From sequence record OR906198.1: a stretch of 64,000 nucleotides of DNA; one strand, 5' to 3'. The notes under the pieces are model-generated. The model was given only the letters and a program-made list of their open reading frames with translations. It was not told the DNA's origin and ran no database searches. The DNA comes from Escherichia phage BP32. Shown here piece after piece: positions 30,358 through 38,129 of the stretch. Made by a program: the position numbers and the translations under genes. Each line of letters starts with the position of its first letter. The first letter of the stretch is position 1.

Positions 30358-30808
30358 ATTAGAAATAAGAAGCAATTTCAAATGGCCGTCATGTGCATTA
30401 AGTAACTTTGCTCAATGGCCTTTTGTTATGGATGGTATTCAATTCGGAGGTCTTGAAGGATTTCTCCAAGGATGTAAGGTGAAAAATGTTGAACAACAAA
30501 AACGTATATTTGGGTTGTCTGGATTGGCTGCACAGCAAGCCGGAAGGTCTTATGCAAGAGCTCAGGACCGTGGGACTCTCTTCTGGTTAGGAGTTCCATT
30601 TTCAAGATACTCTGAAGCGTGGAAAGAATTATACACAAATGCATATTTTGAAGCAGCGATCCAAAACAGGGGTTTTCGTGATGCATTACAAGCCTCGAAA
30701 GGAAAAGTTTTGAAGCACAGCATGGCTAGTGGTCTAACAAAAGATGATACAATACTAACCGAAGCTGAATTTATTGATGTGTTAAACCTATTAAGAGACT
30801 CTCTATGA
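30341..30808 (+). CDS. NADAR-like (YbiA/DUF1768-like) domain protein
   Basis: ALSNFAQWPFVMDGIQFGGLEGFLQGCK resembles the YbiA core DFSNFAAWPIKVDGKTWPTSEHYFQAQKF as I recall it. Confidence 0.55.
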   Translation: MLKMSELEIRSNFKWPSCALSNFAQWPFVMDGIQFGGLEGFLQGCKVKNVEQQKRIFGLSGLAAQQAGRSYARAQDRGTLFWLGVPFSRYSEAWKELYTNAYFEAAIQNRGFRDALQASKGKVLKHSMASGLTKDDTILTEAEFIDVLNLLRDSL

Positions 30809-31659
30809 AGCCAACTATTTTGACTGATATTGATGGAGTATGTTTAAGCTGGCAATCAGGCCTTCCTTATTTTGCTCAGAAATATAATCTTCCATTAGAA
30901 CATATTTTAAAAATGATCCAAGATGAGAAATTTATTTCTCCAGGTAAACTCTTTAATTGTGACGAAGAACTTGGCGTCAAGTTAATTGAAAAATACAATC
31001 GTTCAGATTTTATTCGTTACTTGTCTCCGTATAAAGATGCCCTGTGTGTAATTAACAAATTAAAAGAAGATTATAATTTTGTAGCTGTTACAGCATTGGG
31101 TGATTCTATTGATGCTCTATTAAATCGTCAATTTAATTTGAATGCTCTTTTTCCTGGTGCCTTTTCAGAAGTAATGATGTGTGGTCATGATTCTTCAAAA
31201 GAAGAGTTGTTCAAAAAGGCAAAAGAGAAATATAACGTAATTTGTTATATTGACGATCTCGCTCATCACTGCGATCATGCGAGTGAAATATTAAATGTTC
31301 CTGTTTATTGGATGGCTCGAGGAGAACGTGACAATATTCCAAAAACTGCTCAGCGAGTTTATACATGGAATGATGTAGAAAATAAGCTTTTTTCGCCGAA
31401 GGAAAATAAAGAAAGTTTTGATAGTGAAAAAGCTATAAAAGATTTAATTGAGAAGATGGTTAAAAACGATTCTTTTCCTTGGAACACTACCTGGAGAACG
31501 CCTGGATTAAATCCTTATAATCCATATTATCTATATTATCTATATCATCCATATCAGACACATCCGTTTCAGACATGGAACTATATTAAACCTGGTGGCA
31601 TAGAGTATTTGTATAATAGACCTACTAGTGGTGATAATATTTTTCAAGGAGCATTCTAA
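30805..31659 (+). CDS. HAD-superfamily phosphatase/nucleotidase-like protein with Tyr/Pro-rich C-terminal tail
   Basis: N-terminal ILTDIDGV (HAD motif I DxDG); C-terminal NPYNPYYLYYLYHPYQTHPFQ. Confidence 0.6.
   Translation: MKPTILTDIDGVCLSWQSGLPYFAQKYNLPLEHILKMIQDEKFISPGKLFNCDEELGVKLIEKYNRSDFIRYLSPYKDALCVINKLKEDYNFVAVTALGDSIDALLNRQFNLNALFPGAFSEVMMCGHDSSKEELFKKAKEKYNVICYIDDLAHHCDHASEILNVPVYWMARGERDNIPKTAQRVYTWNDVENKLFSPKENKESFDSEKAIKDLIEKMVKNDSFPWNTTWRTPGLNPYNPYYLYYLYHPYQTHPFQTWNYIKPGGIEYLYNRPTSGDNIFQGAF
31522..31557 (+). repeat. Four imperfect 9 bp tandem repeats inside the HAD-like gene
   Basis: ccatattat / ctatattat / ctatatcat / ccatatcag, encoding the YYLYYLYHPYQ tail. Confidence 0.6.
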
Positions 31660-31925: not shown

Positions 31926-33386
31926 ATGATTCTTAAAATTCTGAATGAAATAGCATCTATTGGATCAACTAAGCAGAAGCAAGCAATTCTTGAAAAGAAT
32001 AAAGATAATGAATTGCTTAAACGAGTATATCGTCTGACTTATTCTCGTGGGTTACAGTATTATATTAAGAAATGGCCTAAACCTGGTATTGCTACCCAGA
32101 GTTTTGGAATGCTGACCATTACCGATATGCTTGACTTCATTGAATTCACGTTAGCTACTCGGAAATTGACTGGAAATGCAGCAATTGAGGAATTAACTGG
32201 ATATATCACTGATGGTAAAAAGGATGATGTTGAAGTTTTGCGTCGAGTGATGATGCGAGACCTTGAATGCGGTGCTTCAGTATCTATTGCAAACAAAGTT
32301 TGGCCAGGTTTAATTCCTGAACAACCTCAAATGCTGGCAAGTTCTTATGATGAAAAAGGCATTAGTAAGAATATCAAGTTTCCAGCCTTTGCGCAATTAA
32401 AAGCAGATGGAGCTCGGTGTTTTGCTGAAGTCCGAGGCGATGAATTAGATGATGTTCGTCTTTTATCACGAGCTGGTAATGAATATCTAGGATTAGATCT
32501 TCTTAAGGAAGAGTTAATCAAAATGACTGCTGAAGCCCGCCAGATTCATCCAGAAGGTGTGTTAATTGATGGCGAATTGGTATACCATGAGCAAGTTGAA
32601 AAAGAGCCAGAAGGCCTAGATTTTCTTTTTGATGCTCCTGAAATCAGTAAAGCTAAAGAATTCGCCGAAGTAGCTGAATCACGTACTGCTTCTAATGGAA
32701 TCGCTAATAAATCTTTAAAGGGAACTATTTCAGAAAAAGAAGCTCAATGCATGAAGTTTCAGGTCTGGGATTATGTCCCGTTGGTAGAAATATACTGTCT
32801 TCCGGCGTTTCGTTTAAAATATGATGTACGTTTTTCTAAACTAGAACAAATGGCATCAGGATATGATAAAGTAATTTTAATTGAAAACCAGGTAGTAAAT
32901 AACCTAGATGAAGCTAAGGTAATTTATAAAAAGTATATTGACCAAGGTCTTGAAGGTATTATTCTCAAAAATACCGATGGATTGTGGGAAAATGCTCGTT
33001 CAAAAAATCTCTATAAATTTAAAGAAGTAATTGATGTTGATTTAAAAATTGTAGGAATTTATCCTCACCGTAAAGACCCTACTAAAGCAGGTGGATTTAT
33101 TCTTGAATCAGAGTGTGGAAAAATTAAAGTAAATGCAGGTTCAGGCTTAAAAGATAAAGCCGGTGTAAAATCACATGAACTTGACCGTACTCGCATTATG
33201 GAAAACCAAAATTATTATATTGGAAAAATTCTAGAGTGCGAATGCAACGGTTGGTTAAAATCTGATGGTCGCACTGATTACGTTAAATTATTTCTTCCAA
33301 TTGCGATTCGTTTACGTGAAGATAAAACTAAAGCTAATACATTCGAGGATGTATTTGGTGATTTTCATGAGGTAACTGGTCTATGA
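31926..33386 (+). CDS. 30: ATP-dependent DNA ligase gp30
   Basis: MILKILNEIASIGSTKQKQAILEKNKDNELLKRVYRLTYSRGLQYYIKKWPKPG matches T4 DNA ligase; 486 aa. Confidence 0.96.
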   Translation: MILKILNEIASIGSTKQKQAILEKNKDNELLKRVYRLTYSRGLQYYIKKWPKPGIATQSFGMLTITDMLDFIEFTLATRKLTGNAAIEELTGYITDGKKDDVEVLRRVMMRDLECGASVSIANKVWPGLIPEQPQMLASSYDEKGISKNIKFPAFAQLKADGARCFAEVRGDELDDVRLLSRAGNEYLGLDLLKEELIKMTAEARQIHPEGVLIDGELVYHEQVEKEPEGLDFLFDAPEISKAKEFAEVAESRTASNGIANKSLKGTISEKEAQCMKFQVWDYVPLVEIYCLPAFRLKYDVRFSKLEQMASGYDKVILIENQVVNNLDEAKVIYKKYIDQGLEGIILKNTDGLWENARSKNLYKFKEVIDVDLKIVGIYPHRKDPTKAGGFILESECGKIKVNAGSGLKDKAGVKSHELDRTRIMENQNYYIGKILECECNGWLKSDGRTDYVKLFLPIAIRLREDKTKANTFEDVFGDFHEVTGL

Positions 33387-33571
33387 AAGCTTACTTAGAA
33401 ACAATTGTCGTGGCTCAAAAAGAAGGTGGAGATGTTTCTACTTCTGTATCACAAGTCATTCTCGAATTTGTAGATGCATATGCTTATAATAAATTTACAG
33501 AAACATTTGATGCCTATGAAAAAGGACCAAAGTTTGAAATATATCGTACTCTCTTACCACTAGATTACTAA
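33383..33571 (+). CDS. Hypothetical protein (62 aa) overlapping ligase stop
   Basis: ATGA overlap with ligase. Confidence 0.45.
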   Translation: MKAYLETIVVAQKEGGDVSTSVSQVILEFVDAYAYNKFTETFDAYEKGPKFEIYRTLLPLDY

Positions 33572-33600
33572 AGGCCTTCGGGCCTTTAATTTTATAAATA
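33571..33600 (+). promoter_or_regulatory. Hairpin aaaggcc-ttcg-ggccttt followed by late promoter TATAAATA (33593-33600) upstream of alt
   Basis: Perfect stem plus exact late promoter motif about 25 bp before the alt ATG. Confidence 0.55.
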
Positions 33601-33623
33601 GAATAAACACTAGAGAGGATATG

Positions 33624-35717
33624 ATGGAACTCATTACAGAATTATTTGACGAAGATACTACTCTTCCGATTACAAACTTAAATCCAAAGAAGAAAATACC
33701 ACAAATTTTTTCAGTTCATGTCGATGACGCAATTGAACAACCAGGCTTTCGTTTATGTACCTATACATCTGGAGGTGATACTAATCGCGATTTAAAAATG
33801 GGCGATAAAATGATGCATATTGTTCCTTTTACATTAACTGCTAAAGGTTCAATTGCTAAATTAAAAGGTCTCGGTCCAAGCCCAATTAATTACATCAATT
33901 CAGTTTTTACTGTTGCAATGCAGACGATGCGCCAGTATAAAATTGATGCCTGCATGCTTCGTATTCTTAAGTCTAAAACTGCTGGTCAAGCTCGACAAAT
34001 TCAAGTTATTGCTGATAGACTTATCCGTAGTCGTTCAGGTGGCAGATACGTCCTTCTTAAGGAACTCTGGGATTATGATAAAAAGTATGCATATATTCTT
34101 ATACATCGCAAAAATGTATCACTAGAAGACATTCCAGGAGTTCCGGAAATTAGTACCGAGCTCTTTACTAAAGTTGAATCGAAGGTCGGCGATGTTTATA
34201 TCAATAAAGATACCGGAGCTCAAGTAACTAAAAATGAGGCAATTGCAGCATCTATTGCACAAGAAAATGATAAACGTTCTGACCAAGCTGTTATTGTTAA
34301 AGTTAAAATTTCCCGTAGAGCAATTGCACAAAGCCAGTCATTGGAATCTTCTAGATTTGAAAGCGAATTATTCCAGAAGTATGAATCTACTGCAGCTAAT
34401 TTCAATAAACCTGCTACAGCTCCTTTAATTCCCGAAGCAGAAGAAATGAAGCTTGGAATTAATTCATTAGCTTCTAAAACTAAGGCAGCAAAAATTATTG
34501 CCGAAGGAACCGCAGATGAACTTCACTATGACTATAAATTCTTTTCAAAAAGTGAGGTTAATGAAGTTTCTGAAAAAATTAAAGATGTAATTCTTAATGC
34601 GATTAAAAATGAACCAACTACTTCAATAAAATGTTTAGAGAAATACGCAGCAGCTGTTAATAAATTCTTTGAAGAATATAAAGATAATTGGCTTGATAAA
34701 CATAATAAAACCCGTAAAGGACAGCCAGATGAAGTCTGGGAAGAAATAACTAAAAATTCCTGGAACGCAGCAAAAACTAAATTCCTCAAACGAATGATTT
34801 ATAGCTTTTCTGGAATTGGTGCAGGTCCAATGATTGATATTACTATTGCCCGTGATGGTTCTAAATATACCCCATCGCAAAAGCGCGGCATTAGAGAGTA
34901 TTGTGGATCAGGATATACTGACATCAATAATCTTCTTTTAGGCCGCTACAATCCAGAACGATATGATGTAATGAGTGAAAAAGAAATTGAATCTGCGATA
35001 AATAATTTAGATTCAGCCTTTGAAAATGGTGACCGTATACCAGAAGGCATTACAGTTTATCGTGCTCAAAGTATGACTGCTCCTATATACGAAGCACTAG
35101 TTAAAAATAAAGTGTTCTATTTCAGAAATTTTGTATCTACTTCTTTAACTCCTATCATTTTTGGACGTTTTGGAATTACACATGCTGGTATCGGTCTTTT
35201 AGAACCAGAAGCTCGTAATGAATTAACAGTTGATAAAAATGAAGAAGGAATAACTATTAATCCAAACGAAATAAGAGCGTATAAAGAAAATCCTGAATAC
35301 GTTAAAGTTCAAATAGGATGGGCAATTGATGGAGCTCATAAAGTTAATGTTGTATATCCAGGAAGTCTCGGAATAGCAACTGAAGCTGAAGTTATTCTAC
35401 CGCGCGGATTGATGGTCAAAGTTAATAAAATAACTGATGCTTCTAATAATGACGGAACAACAACTAATAATACAAAACTCATTCAAGCTGAAGTTATGAC
35501 TACGGAAGAACTCACCGAATCAGTAATTTATGATGGTGACCGTCTAATGGAAACTGGTGAAGTAGTTGCAATGACAGGTGATATTGAAATAGAAGACAGA
35601 GTTGACTTTGCATCATTTGTTTCATCAAATGTTAAACAAAAAGTAGAATCATCTCTTGGAATTATTGCGTCTTGCATAGATATTACAAACATGCCTTACA
35701 AGTTCGTTCAAGGATAA
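33624..35717 (+). CDS. alt: Alt-family mono-ADP-ribosyltransferase, copy 1 (packaged internal head protein)
   Basis: MELITELFDEDTTLPITNLNPKKKIPQIFSVHVDD N-terminus matches T4 Alt; ART motifs VYRAQ, FVSTS, TEAEVILPRG. Confidence 0.9.
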   Translation: MELITELFDEDTTLPITNLNPKKKIPQIFSVHVDDAIEQPGFRLCTYTSGGDTNRDLKMGDKMMHIVPFTLTAKGSIAKLKGLGPSPINYINSVFTVAMQTMRQYKIDACMLRILKSKTAGQARQIQVIADRLIRSRSGGRYVLLKELWDYDKKYAYILIHRKNVSLEDIPGVPEISTELFTKVESKVGDVYINKDTGAQVTKNEAIAASIAQENDKRSDQAVIVKVKISRRAIAQSQSLESSRFESELFQKYESTAANFNKPATAPLIPEAEEMKLGINSLASKTKAAKIIAEGTADELHYDYKFFSKSEVNEVSEKIKDVILNAIKNEPTTSIKCLEKYAAAVNKFFEEYKDNWLDKHNKTRKGQPDEVWEEITKNSWNAAKTKFLKRMIYSFSGIGAGPMIDITIARDGSKYTPSQKRGIREYCGSGYTDINNLLLGRYNPERYDVMSEKEIESAINNLDSAFENGDRIPEGITVYRAQSMTAPIYEALVKNKVFYFRNFVSTSLTPIIFGRFGITHAGIGLLEPEARNELTVDKNEEGITINPNEIRAYKENPEYVKVQIGWAIDGAHKVNVVYPGSLGIATEAEVILPRGLMVKVNKITDASNNDGTTTNNTKLIQAEVMTTEELTESVIYDGDRLMETGEVVAMTGDIEIEDRVDFASFVSSNVKQKVESSLGIIASCIDITNMPYKFVQG

Positions 35718-35720
35718 ATC

Positions 35721-37778
35721 ATGGAACTTATTACAGAATTATTTGACGGCGCTTCGGCGCCGGTTGTTAACTTAAATCCTAAGCATAAAATACCTCAAAT
35801 TTTTGCTATTCAAGCCGGTGAAGAAAGCGTGCTTCCTGGATTTAGATTTTGTACATACACCTCTGGCGGTGATACAAATAAAAACGTTAAGCCAGGCGAT
35901 AAAATGATGCATATCGTAATGATAGGCGTTAATGAGAAACTATCATTAGTTAAACTTAAAAACTTGGGTGGAAATCCAATTGGTGTCATTAATGCGGTTT
36001 TTGATACTGCTCTTCAAACAATGAAGCAGTATAAAATTGACGCATGTCTATTCCGCGTACTAAAGAGTAAAACAAACGGTGCAGGTCGGCAAATGCAAGT
36101 TATTGCCGACCGTTTAGTACGTACTAAAGGAGCAGGTCGATATGTTCTTTTAAAAGAAATCTGGGACTATGATAAAAAATATGCATATATTATGGTTTAC
36201 CGTAAAAATGCCAATTTAGAAGACATTCCAGGTGTACCTCCTATTTCAACTGAGTTATTCACAAAAGTTGAATCAAAGGTTGGTGATGTTTATGTAGACG
36301 TTAAAACAGGTAATGCTGTTCCTAAAGCTGTCGCTGTTGCTGCTTCTATTGCTTTAGAAAATGATAAGCGCACGGATCAAGCTGTTATTCAGAAAACTAA
36401 AATTAGTCGTCGATTAGCAGCTCAAGCTCAATATTCTACTGTCGATGCTTCACTTCAGGGTGATAGCTTCGCTGCTAAGAAATATCAAGAGTTTGAATCT
36501 AAAGTTCCGGTATATAAAGCAGAAGGACCAATGAACTCTGGCGTTATTCAGGTTGGTTCAAACTTCAGCAAAGGAGCTATCGGTGGTATGAGAAGTGCTT
36601 CTCGTTTTAAATCTAGTGATTATGAACTCGAAAGCTTCCGAAATCATATTGCATTGGCTCATGCACGTTTACGTGATCCATCTATCAAGTTACAGAGCGA
36701 TATAACATATCAAGGTTCTCAAGAATATTTAAAGAATAAAGAATTTTTTGATTATAAAACTGATAAAATTTTAAGCGATCTTGCTGACATTAATATTTCT
36801 AATAGCTTTGATGTTATTAAGAAAATTGTCAATGATTTAGTTAAAGGTTCTAAAGCCACACCAGATGAAAAGGTAGCTATTGTTCAATTTGTCATGAATG
36901 GCGTTTATAAATTGATTAATGAGTCTGCTTCTCAAGCGTATGAATATGCAAGTACTGAAGTAACTCCAAAAGGATTAACTCAGGCTGAGTCTGATGTAAT
37001 TGAAGATTATTGTGCAGATTCATATGTTGAAATGAACTCGTTCCTTTTAGGTAAACCGGATTCTACCCGTGAAGAATATATGGAACGAGCTATTAAACAC
37101 ATCGAGACAATGGATTCTGCCTTTGCCAAAGGGTCAGTTCTTCCTCCAGGAACTACGCTTTACCGTGGCCAAGAAGTTACCTTTAAAACTTTACGTCATA
37201 ATATTGAAAATAAAATGTTCTATTTCAAGAACTTCGTATCCACATCACTTAAACCAAATATCTTCGGTGAGTATGGTAAAAACTATATGGCCCTAGATGA
37301 TTCCAGTGCAGTATTTTCTGGTGAAGGAGAAGGTTCAGTTGATGCTGAAGATTTAATGCATATGGGTAGTCATTCTGCATATGCTAATGAAGATGCTGAA
37401 ACTAGCGTGGGTATGGTAATTAAAGGAGCTGAGCGAATCAAAGTTATCGTTCCAGGTCATTTATCAGGATTTCCATCAGAAGCTGAAGTTATTTTACCGC
37501 GTGGAATTTTGCTGAAGATTAATAAAGTGAGTACGTACATGATGAAAGAAACTGCTTATAACAAGTATCTAATAGAAGGCACAATCGTTCCTCCTTCTGA
37601 ACAATTAGAAGAATCGGTATATGACGGCGACCATCTAATGGAAACTGGTGAAGTTCGTCCAATGGCTGGATTTAATCAATTCCTTGTAGAAGAATCAAAA
37701 GAAGAGGAAAACGAAGTTTCTCAAATCTTGGCTTCTTTGGTTAACATCAACGGAATGTCTAAAAAGTTCAAAATGTAG
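35721..37778 (+). CDS. Alt-family mono-ADP-ribosyltransferase, copy 2 (diverged paralog)
   Basis: MELITELFDGASAPVVNLNPKHKIPQIF N-terminus; ART motifs LYRGQ, FVSTS, SEAEVILPRG; central region diverged from copy 1. Confidence 0.85.
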   Translation: MELITELFDGASAPVVNLNPKHKIPQIFAIQAGEESVLPGFRFCTYTSGGDTNKNVKPGDKMMHIVMIGVNEKLSLVKLKNLGGNPIGVINAVFDTALQTMKQYKIDACLFRVLKSKTNGAGRQMQVIADRLVRTKGAGRYVLLKEIWDYDKKYAYIMVYRKNANLEDIPGVPPISTELFTKVESKVGDVYVDVKTGNAVPKAVAVAASIALENDKRTDQAVIQKTKISRRLAAQAQYSTVDASLQGDSFAAKKYQEFESKVPVYKAEGPMNSGVIQVGSNFSKGAIGGMRSASRFKSSDYELESFRNHIALAHARLRDPSIKLQSDITYQGSQEYLKNKEFFDYKTDKILSDLADINISNSFDVIKKIVNDLVKGSKATPDEKVAIVQFVMNGVYKLINESASQAYEYASTEVTPKGLTQAESDVIEDYCADSYVEMNSFLLGKPDSTREEYMERAIKHIETMDSAFAKGSVLPPGTTLYRGQEVTFKTLRHNIENKMFYFKNFVSTSLKPNIFGEYGKNYMALDDSSAVFSGEGEGSVDAEDLMHMGSHSAYANEDAETSVGMVIKGAERIKVIVPGHLSGFPSEAEVILPRGILLKINKVSTYMMKETAYNKYLIEGTIVPPSEQLEESVYDGDHLMETGEVRPMAGFNQFLVEESKEEENEVSQILASLVNINGMSKKFKM

Positions 37779-37807
37779 TTTACAAGTCCCTCGTGTTGTG
37801 TTATAAT
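37778..37807 (+). promoter_or_regulatory. T4-early-like promoter (GTTTAC ... TATAAT), second copy of the duplicated cassette
   Basis: GTTTAC 37778-37783, TATAAT 37802-37807, 18 nt spacer. Confidence 0.5.
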
Positions 37808-37838: not shown

Positions 37839-38129
37839 ATGAAATCTTCTTTACGCTTTTTAGGTCAAGAACTCGTAGTTGAAGGCGTTATTCCTGCTGA
37901 TAACGCTTTTAATGAAGCAGTTTATGATGAATTTATCAAAATTTTTGGAACAGATAAAAAGTTCGGAATTTTTCCTTCTGAAAATTTTTCAAAGCCAGAA
38001 CAGACTGAAAGCATTTTCCAAGGTGTAGTAACAGGTAAATTTGAGTCAGAAGCTCCGGTAAAAATTGAAGTTTATATTGAAGACAGTTTAGTTGCTTCAG
38101 TTGCTGCTTTTATTTCATTCCGTAAATAA
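37839..38129 (+). CDS. Hypothetical protein (96 aa)
   Basis: ORF with GAGG Shine-Dalgarno downstream of the cassette. Confidence 0.55.
   Translation: MKSSLRFLGQELVVEGVIPADNAFNEAVYDEFIKIFGTDKKFGIFPSENFSKPEQTESIFQGVVTGKFESEAPVKIEVYIEDSLVASVAAFISFRK

Follow-up and report, generated by a model that had tools for sequence, protein, structure and literature searches.

The window analyzed here, a 64,000-nucleotide stretch of DNA from Escherichia phage BP32 (record OR906198.1), contains two adjacent genes of the Alt family of ADP-ribosyltransferases (ARTs), which we refer to as copy 1, or altA, and copy 2, or altB. Considering the locus between window positions 33300 and 38300, we propose, with a probability of roughly 0.75, that the two genes encode late, co-packaged and injected arginine ARTs that are processed by gp21, that share a delivery domain and that differ in the parts recognizing their targets. 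The gene pair itself is already known, annotated and ordinary for T-even phages, and as a genome feature it changes nothing; its value lies in pointing to the targets of AltB. Knowledge of injected ARTs comes nearly all from T4, a phage without the second enzyme, and the two-gene state is common and ancestral, with both genes being strongly conserved.

Family membership and catalytic residues

When the two proteins were aligned with each other by BLASTP, as an earlier prediction made from the DNA alone had suggested, they proved to be 41% identical over their full length (E 2e-158). Both match PF03496 (ADPrib_exo_Tox), copy 1 with 128.7 bits (2e-37) and copy 2 with 73.3 bits (2e-20), where the Pfam gathering cut-off is 23.4 bits, and both match positions 2-674 of the 674 in phrog_802, 'Alt-like RNA polymerase ADP-ribosyltransferase' (E 4e-272 for copy 1 and 3e-255 for copy 2). 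These results bear out the prediction of two tandem Alt-family ART genes. PF26846 (Tevenvirinae_ADPRT) is a precomputed match on orthologues of the copies, and NCBIfam and PADLOC scans of both copies matched no family. PDB sequences searched with copy 2 alone yielded no match at E<=0.01, such that a family profile was needed; the closest structural match of AltB is an arginine-specific protein ART. AlphaFold models of the two copies (mean predicted local distance difference test scores, pLDDT, of 75.6 and 76.7) present a common plan, namely a basic alpha/beta N-domain (residues ~12-215), an all-helical middle domain (~250-410), an ART domain, for which the ART fold is predicted in both copies, and a disordered acidic tail. 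The PF03496 toxins of the R-S-E class (C3-like, Vis, VIP2 and iota-type) are, in comparison, secreted bacterial proteins with other delivery domains, whereas Alt adds the N-domain, which is phage-specific, and the helical middle.

The motifs named in the original prediction are present as quoted, starting at residues 478 (VYRAQ), 503 (FVSTS) and 587 (EAEVILPRG) in copy 1 and at residues 480 (LYRGQ), 505 (FVSTS) and 587 (EAEVILPRG) in copy 2. In 22 aligned family members, no variation is seen in the Arg of Y-R-x-Q, the two Ser of S-T-S or the two Glu of E-x-E. The alignment shows the catalytic Glu, the loss of which had been named as an observation that would speak against an intact enzyme, to be kept in both copies, as E589 of each aligns with the second Glu of N-E-M-E-V in T4 Alt, E576 in the 682-amino acid (aa) sequence. 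The literature refers to this residue as E577, with numbering that is one higher, and the E577A variant is catalytically dead (PMC11404850). When the family profile was compared to a C3-like ART, YRGQ corresponded to YRGD and E-A-E-V-I-LPRG to Q-Y-E-L-L-LPRN. C3, which is asparagine-specific, presents Q-x-E, whereas both Alt copies present E-x-E, which in ART toxins accompanies arginine as the acceptor.

Selection was considered using the window, T2 and T6. The ratio of non-synonymous to synonymous substitution rates (dN/dS, Nei-Gojobori) was 0.025-0.047 for copy 1 and 0.046-0.060 for copy 2, and stayed below 0.12 in each segment tested (N-domain, middle domain, and ART with tail); copy 2 differs from its T2 and T6 counterparts by 81-86 synonymous and 19-20 non-synonymous changes. 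Both genes are, therefore, under strong purifying selection over their whole length. Together with the catalytic residues, the family models and the predicted ART fold, this supports the earlier claim that both copies appear catalytically intact, with transfer to arginine, dependent on nicotinamide adenine dinucleotide (NAD), being the predicted activity.

Expression, packaging and processing

T4 Alt is a head-core protein found in about 40 copies that enters the host with the DNA (PMC9958956; PMC2988021). It is cut by gp21 at ITE-6 and LTE-619 to yield a 68.2 kDa form, as determined by mass spectrometry (PMC5694885), and the calculated mass of residues 7-619 is indeed 68,245 Da. As gp21 sites were mapped experimentally only in T4 Alt, those of both copies are read from aligned motifs and should be considered putative. 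ITE-6 is found in 22/22 family members and the C-terminal L-x-E in 21/22; the mature masses predicted on this basis are 70.2 kDa for copy 1 (ITE-6 to LTE-632) and 69.1 kDa for copy 2 (ITE-6 to LEE-631). The original prediction of a shared Alt N-terminus that includes the processing-signal region agrees with these observations, as the N-domains are 67% identical and ITE-6 is present in both copies.

The N-domain is basic in both copies (isoelectric point, pI, of 9.4-9.5). When an N-domain profile was compared to 1.84 billion representative proteins, only 74 clusters were found, nearly all of proteins of 600-712 aa, and those cluster proteins that were scanned carry PF03496. From its sequence, we infer that the N-domain serves as a packaging and ejection module and that AltB would travel with AltA.

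The locus arrangement is consistent with late expression of both genes. Copy 1 is preceded by a T4-type late promoter box, TATAAATA, and a second such box is absent between 33593 and 37778, as well as elsewhere from alt.1 to the end of copy 2. The junction at 35711..35723 has no promoter of copy 2's own, and the Shine-Dalgarno (SD)-like AAGGA that precedes the copy 2 start falls inside the 3' end of copy 1. Because of the single box and the position of AAGGA, altA and altB appear to be transcribed late as one unit and to be translationally coupled.

Four metagenomic proteins, P0180 (485 aa), P0182 (1142 aa), P0183 (541 aa) and P0188 (347 aa), contain the first ~145-170 residues of the Alt N-domain, and no ART or other domain was recognized in them by Pfam. 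These proteins may combine the same delivery module with other cargo.

Divergence of the two copies

Identity between copy 1 and copy 2 differs markedly by module. As compared to the N-domain value, it is about 10-14% in the middle domain, 32% in the ART domain and 39% in the tail. Residues ~239-415 present only 8-20% identity in sliding windows, with no recognizable similarity. The strongly diverged center noted in the original prediction is thus real, although it extends over ~180 aa rather than ~300 aa, being followed by an ART domain that is ~32% identical. Comparing B-type to A-type alignments of the middle domain with hhalign revealed no detectable homology (probability 0.6%, E 0.1). That the middle domains are diverged homologues accordingly finds no hhalign signal; as both are predicted to be all-helical with a similar number of helices, extreme divergence is nonetheless possible. 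The middle-domain pI is 8.3 in copy 1 versus 5.3 in copy 2, and at least six middle-domain types are found among the 22 aligned proteins.

The lineages also differ next to the catalytic site. All B-type proteins carry Phe or Tyr three residues before the first Glu of E-x-E (F583 in copy 2), whereas A-type proteins (T4, T6 and relatives) have no aromatic residue in this loop. In the family profile alignment, a Tyr of C3 aligns with the B-type aromatic position. In C3-like toxins, the aromatic residue at that loop position takes part in substrate recognition.

Relative to T4 Alt (NP_049811; UniProt P12726 in PMC8120803), copy 1 is the positional orthologue. Residues 1-238 differ at a single position and the tail shows about 90% identity, yet identity falls to only about 49% over residues ~252-640, comprising the middle and ART domains, such that copy 1 is a mosaic relative to T4 Alt. 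The two are alike in late promoter context, gp21 motifs and the R-S-ExE residues. Copy 2 presents the same domain order as T4 Alt and 41% identity, but its middle domain is unrelated and its ART domain only 30-32% identical.

Distribution of the pair and its state in T4

The locus region is 97-98% identical at the DNA level to many Tequatrovirus genomes, and 374 phage records match it with a coverage of 80% or more. Copy 2 is found at >=90% protein identity in about 400 records, and its 90% cluster holds 772 member sequences; in many Tequatrovirus genomes, RefSeq labels the genes 'Alt-like RNA polymerase ADP-ribosyltransferase (x2)'. Copy 1 corresponds to the alt allele of T6 (98.7% identity with X69894). 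The comparison of copy 2 with T2, T4 and T6 that the original prediction had proposed showed that T2 (AP018813) and T6 (AP018814) hold the intact pair, their genes of 2094 and 2058 nt matching those of the window in length and aligning collinearly at about 95% identity, and that T4 holds only a remnant. The source of the window is best explained as a T2/T6-like Tequatrovirus that retains the ancestral two-gene alt locus.

Prior knowledge of the pair is considerable. The Dhakavirus JS98 has been annotated with alta and altb at the same position since 2007, and Nolan et al. (2006) described T4 alt.-1/alt.-2 and the full-length second alt of 44RR as paralogous duplications of alt (PMC1524935). 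The possibility raised with the original prediction, that copy 2 would prove to be a well-characterized gene annotated in all T-even references, is thus correct with respect to wide annotation, but open-access papers, including those on virion proteomics, yielded no functional study of, or published function for, copy 2/AltB.

In the T4 reference, alt is followed by alt.-1 (61 aa), alt.-2 (67 aa) and alt.-3, the first two lying as remnants between alt and alt.-3. According to the T4 record, alt.-1 and alt.-2 (NP_049810, NP_049809) stem from an old duplication that copied the first part of alt. However, the two proteins match residues 1-56 and 62-116 of copy 2 at 95% and 98% identity, respectively, as compared to only 58-62% for copy 1. 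A -1 frameshift in a run of A residues (five in the window, four in T4) splits the remnant into alt.-1 and alt.-2, and DNA alignment shows T4 to be without 1699 bp between the 9-bp direct repeats CTAAAGAGT and CTAAAAAGT; the odd C-terminus of alt.-2 results from out-of-frame reading of the 3' end of copy 2 and the alt.-3 promoter. Because the comparison with the window reveals both the frameshift and the deletion, alt.-1 and alt.-2 are the remnant of a full-length altB and not a partial duplication. The statement that only one Alt is recognized in T4 is thus right yet incomplete, as T4 keeps a degraded copy 2. An 81-nt probe for the deletion junction matched 90 records, and about 380 more matched only the half that is kept in an intact copy 2. 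The intact pair is accordingly the majority state, with T4 and its closest relatives being exceptional, and T4-type phages are natural altB nulls that carry altA only.

Age of the duplication and recombination between the copies

JS98/JS10 alta and altb (EF469154; ABX11129, ABX11128) present the same order as the window, 30 - alt.1 - altA - altB - alt.-3 - 54. In the middle, ART and tail, JS98 altA is 34/59/49% identical to copy 1 and JS98 altB is 43/50/58% identical to copy 2, versus about 10/31/35% in the A-to-B cross-comparisons. In all three modules, the closer relative of JS98 altA is thus copy 1 and that of JS98 altB is copy 2, although the orthologues are only 34-59% identical. As the effector parts of A and B are orthologous across genera, the two lineages predate the Tequatrovirus/Dhakavirus split, making the duplication an old one.

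The N-domain behaves differently. Here, paralogues within a genome are 63% (JS98) and 67% (window) identical, whereas orthologues are 45-46% identical. As paralogues are closer than orthologues within each genome, this indicates that the N-domain evolves in concert between the copies. Recent gene conversion over the whole gene was considered and rejected for the window, where DNA identity between the two N-terminal coding regions is only about 68%, implying that homogenization was not recent. The N-domain signal thus reads as longer-term concerted evolution with occasional crossovers.

Traces of such crossovers are found in other records. ECML-134 (NC_025449, 3241-5301) carries a single 686-aa gene that is copy 1-like over ~462 nt and copy 2-like from ~nt 475. 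Its crossover point is where the N-domain is best conserved, implying that tandem copies recombined unequally. Database proteins P0003-P0007 are graded altA/altB mixes in the N-domain, one of them being encoded directly after alt.1 on its contig. A single fusion of the first ~155 altA codons to altB is likewise found in L005 (5001-7061), such that some Tequatroviruses have a gene of this kind. The effectors are, therefore, separately losable, as T4-type phages keep altA only and ECML-134-type phages the altB effector only. The alt locus presents a small and clean case of modular evolution, in which a delivery domain homogenized by recombination is combined with two divergent catalytic cargoes.

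Proposed function of the pair

In the proposed mechanism, both proteins would be late products that enter the prohead core by way of their common basic N-domain and MELITE propeptide, and gp21 would trim both at ITE-6 and at the L-x-E near residue 631, as in T4 Alt. Both would then be injected with the DNA and mono-ADP-ribosylate arginines of host proteins, with AltA and AltB probably hitting different substrate sets, since the ~180-aa middle domains are without detectable homology and the loop aromatic is found only in the B lineage. T4 Alt modifies Arg265 of RNA polymerase alpha, EF-Tu and Arg84 of MazF, and at least 27 proteins in all (PMC8120803). Given this broad target list, an anti-defence or takeover role with other substrates is the natural expectation for AltB. 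We thus tentatively consider AltB to be a second injected effector with substrates distinct from those of AltA, for example one that neutralizes a host toxin or defence protein as T4 Alt does MazF. If true, part of the T-even takeover in T2, T6 and most wild Tequatroviruses has been overlooked, as T4 is an altB null.

Several points weigh against the proposed mechanism and should be taken into consideration. We infer the production, packaging, cleavage and activity of AltB, all four, from its sequence, and the confidence of the models is only moderate (predicted template modelling score, pTM, of 0.58-0.62). The suggestion of different substrates draws solely on the divergence of the middle domains and of one loop, and as T4 Alt is promiscuous, the AltA and AltB substrate ranges could overlap widely. 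In addition, T4-type phages, with the deletion junction seen in about 90 records, thrive without altB, such that its contribution may be small or conditional.

Alternatively, AltB could be a redundant dosage copy that shares with AltA the principal target (RNA polymerase alpha Arg265) as well as the broad range of other proteins, and that only increases the amount of injected enzyme. The loss of altB from T4 without obvious cost, the already broad specificity of T4 Alt, and the catalytic residues, domain order, N-domain and processing motifs common to both copies would all fit such a role. We nonetheless consider this unlikely. A dosage copy should be homogenized over its whole length, as is seen for the N-domain, yet identity between the A and B proteins is 30-32% for the ART and about 10% for the middle domain, versus 50-59% and 34-43% between orthologues, A and B having been distinct since before the Tequatrovirus/Dhakavirus split. 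Moreover, their middle domains are not detectably homologous, and the lineages are consistently distinguished by the loop that precedes E-x-E.

Of the explanations weighed, the least probable by our estimate is that AltB serves above all as a structural or scaffolding protein in the head core, its ART activity being vestigial. Alt has been described as a head core protein besides being an enzyme (PMC11404850), and conservation is highest in the N-domain, where the paralogues evolve in concert; however, the catalytic residues are all invariant, the copy 2 ART module presents a dN/dS of 0.04-0.07, as low as that of the N-domain, and T4 head assembly can do without Alt (PMC9958956). It is also very unlikely, if compatible with the sequence, that AltB is active with a non-canonical donor or acceptor, such as NAD-capped RNA (RNAylation) or nucleic acid. 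A precedent exists in ModB, another ART of T4, which is reported to attach RNA chains to host proteins (PMC10468400). No positive evidence was found for such chemistry in AltB, and both the E-x-E signature of arginine-directed protein ARTs and the nearest structural match, an arginine-specific protein ART, argue against it. As natural single-effector phages exist, the question of the AltB targets can be directly addressed with existing phages.

Organization of the locus

The features of the locus are summarized in Table 1. The gene order is as in T4, T2, T6 and JS98, with altA/altB lying between gene 30/alt.1 and alt.-3/gene 54.

Table 1. Features of the alt locus in window coordinates; domain limits of copy 1 are approximate.
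Feature	Position	Strand	Remarks
Gene 30 (DNA ligase)	31926..33386	+	3' end at locus
alt.1	33383..33571	+	
Terminator-like hairpin TAAAGGCC-TTCG-GGCCTTTA with T-rich tail	33569..33588	+	Terminator scan and sequence reading; closes upstream early unit (gene 30/alt.1)
T4-type late promoter box TATAAATA	33593..33600	+	20-23 nt 5' of copy 1 start
Copy 1 (altA)	33624..35717	+	T6-type allele of alt, 697 aa
Copy 1 N-domain	33624-34337	+	aa 1-238
Copy 1 ITE-6	33633-33641	+	Putative gp21 site
Copy 1 helical middle domain	34338-34856	+	aa 239-411
Copy 1 ART domain	34857-35507	+	aa 412-628
Copy 1 R480	35061-35063	+	Catalytic
Copy 1 S505 and S507	35136-35144	+	Catalytic
Copy 1 E587 and E589	35382-35390	+	Catalytic
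Copy 1 acidic tail		+	aa 629-697
Copy 1 L-T-E632	35511..35519	+	Putative gp21 site, equivalent to T4 LTE-619
Copy 1/copy 2 junction AAGGA-TAA-atc-ATG	35711..35723	+	SD-like AAGGA, copy 1 stop, 3 nt, copy 2 start
Copy 2 (altB)	35721..37778	+	685 aa
Copy 2 N-domain	35721-36434	+	aa 1-238
Copy 2 ITE-6	35730-35738	+	Putative gp21 site
A5 run	35880..35884	+	A4 in T4
Left 9-bp direct repeat CTAAAGAGT	36060..36068	+	Left end of T4 deletion
Copy 2 helical middle domain	36435-36965	+	aa 239-415
Copy 2 ART domain	36966-37604	+	aa 416-628
Copy 2 R482	37164-37166	+	Catalytic
Copy 2 S507 and S509	37239-37247	+	Catalytic
Copy 2 F583	37467-37469	+	Loop aromatic before E-x-E, B-type only
Copy 2 E587 and E589	37479-37487	+	Catalytic
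Copy 2 acidic tail		+	aa 629-685
Copy 2 L-E-E631	37605..37613	+	Putative gp21 site, aligned with T4 LTE-619
Right 9-bp direct repeat CTAAAAAGT	37759..37767	+	Right end of T4 deletion
Sigma-70/early-type promoter	37779-37807	+	Strong; 11/12 matches, with TG
alt.-3	37839..38129	+	96 aa
Bidirectional terminator	38134-38155		
Genes 54, 48 and 29	Beyond terminator	Opposite	

The two open reading frames had been correctly placed in the original prediction, with lengths of 698 and 685 aa. Copy 1 begins with two in-frame ATGs at 33621-33626 (MMELIT...), and the former length counts from the first, while the second (MELITELFD...) gives 697 aa. The spacing from the GAGG core of the ribosome-binding site is 2 nt for the first ATG and 5 nt for the second. 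For T4 Alt, the published numbering E577 matches a 683-aa protein begun at the first ATG, and the mapped ITE-6 site agrees with the annotated 682-aa protein; one review gives a 7-residue propeptide (PMC9026906).

Downstream, alt.-3 (phrog_1739, a function-unknown family) has its own early-type promoter right after the copy 2 stop, as well as the bidirectional terminator. In T4, mutations that escape the CmdTAC defence are C-terminal extensions of Alt.-3 (PMC11618068); in the window, Alt.-3 is of wild-type length. Upstream, the 284-aa product of the gene 30.2 homologue (30805..31659) ends with an unusual aromatic- and proline-rich tail (...NPYNPYYLYYLYHPYQTHPFQTWNY...).

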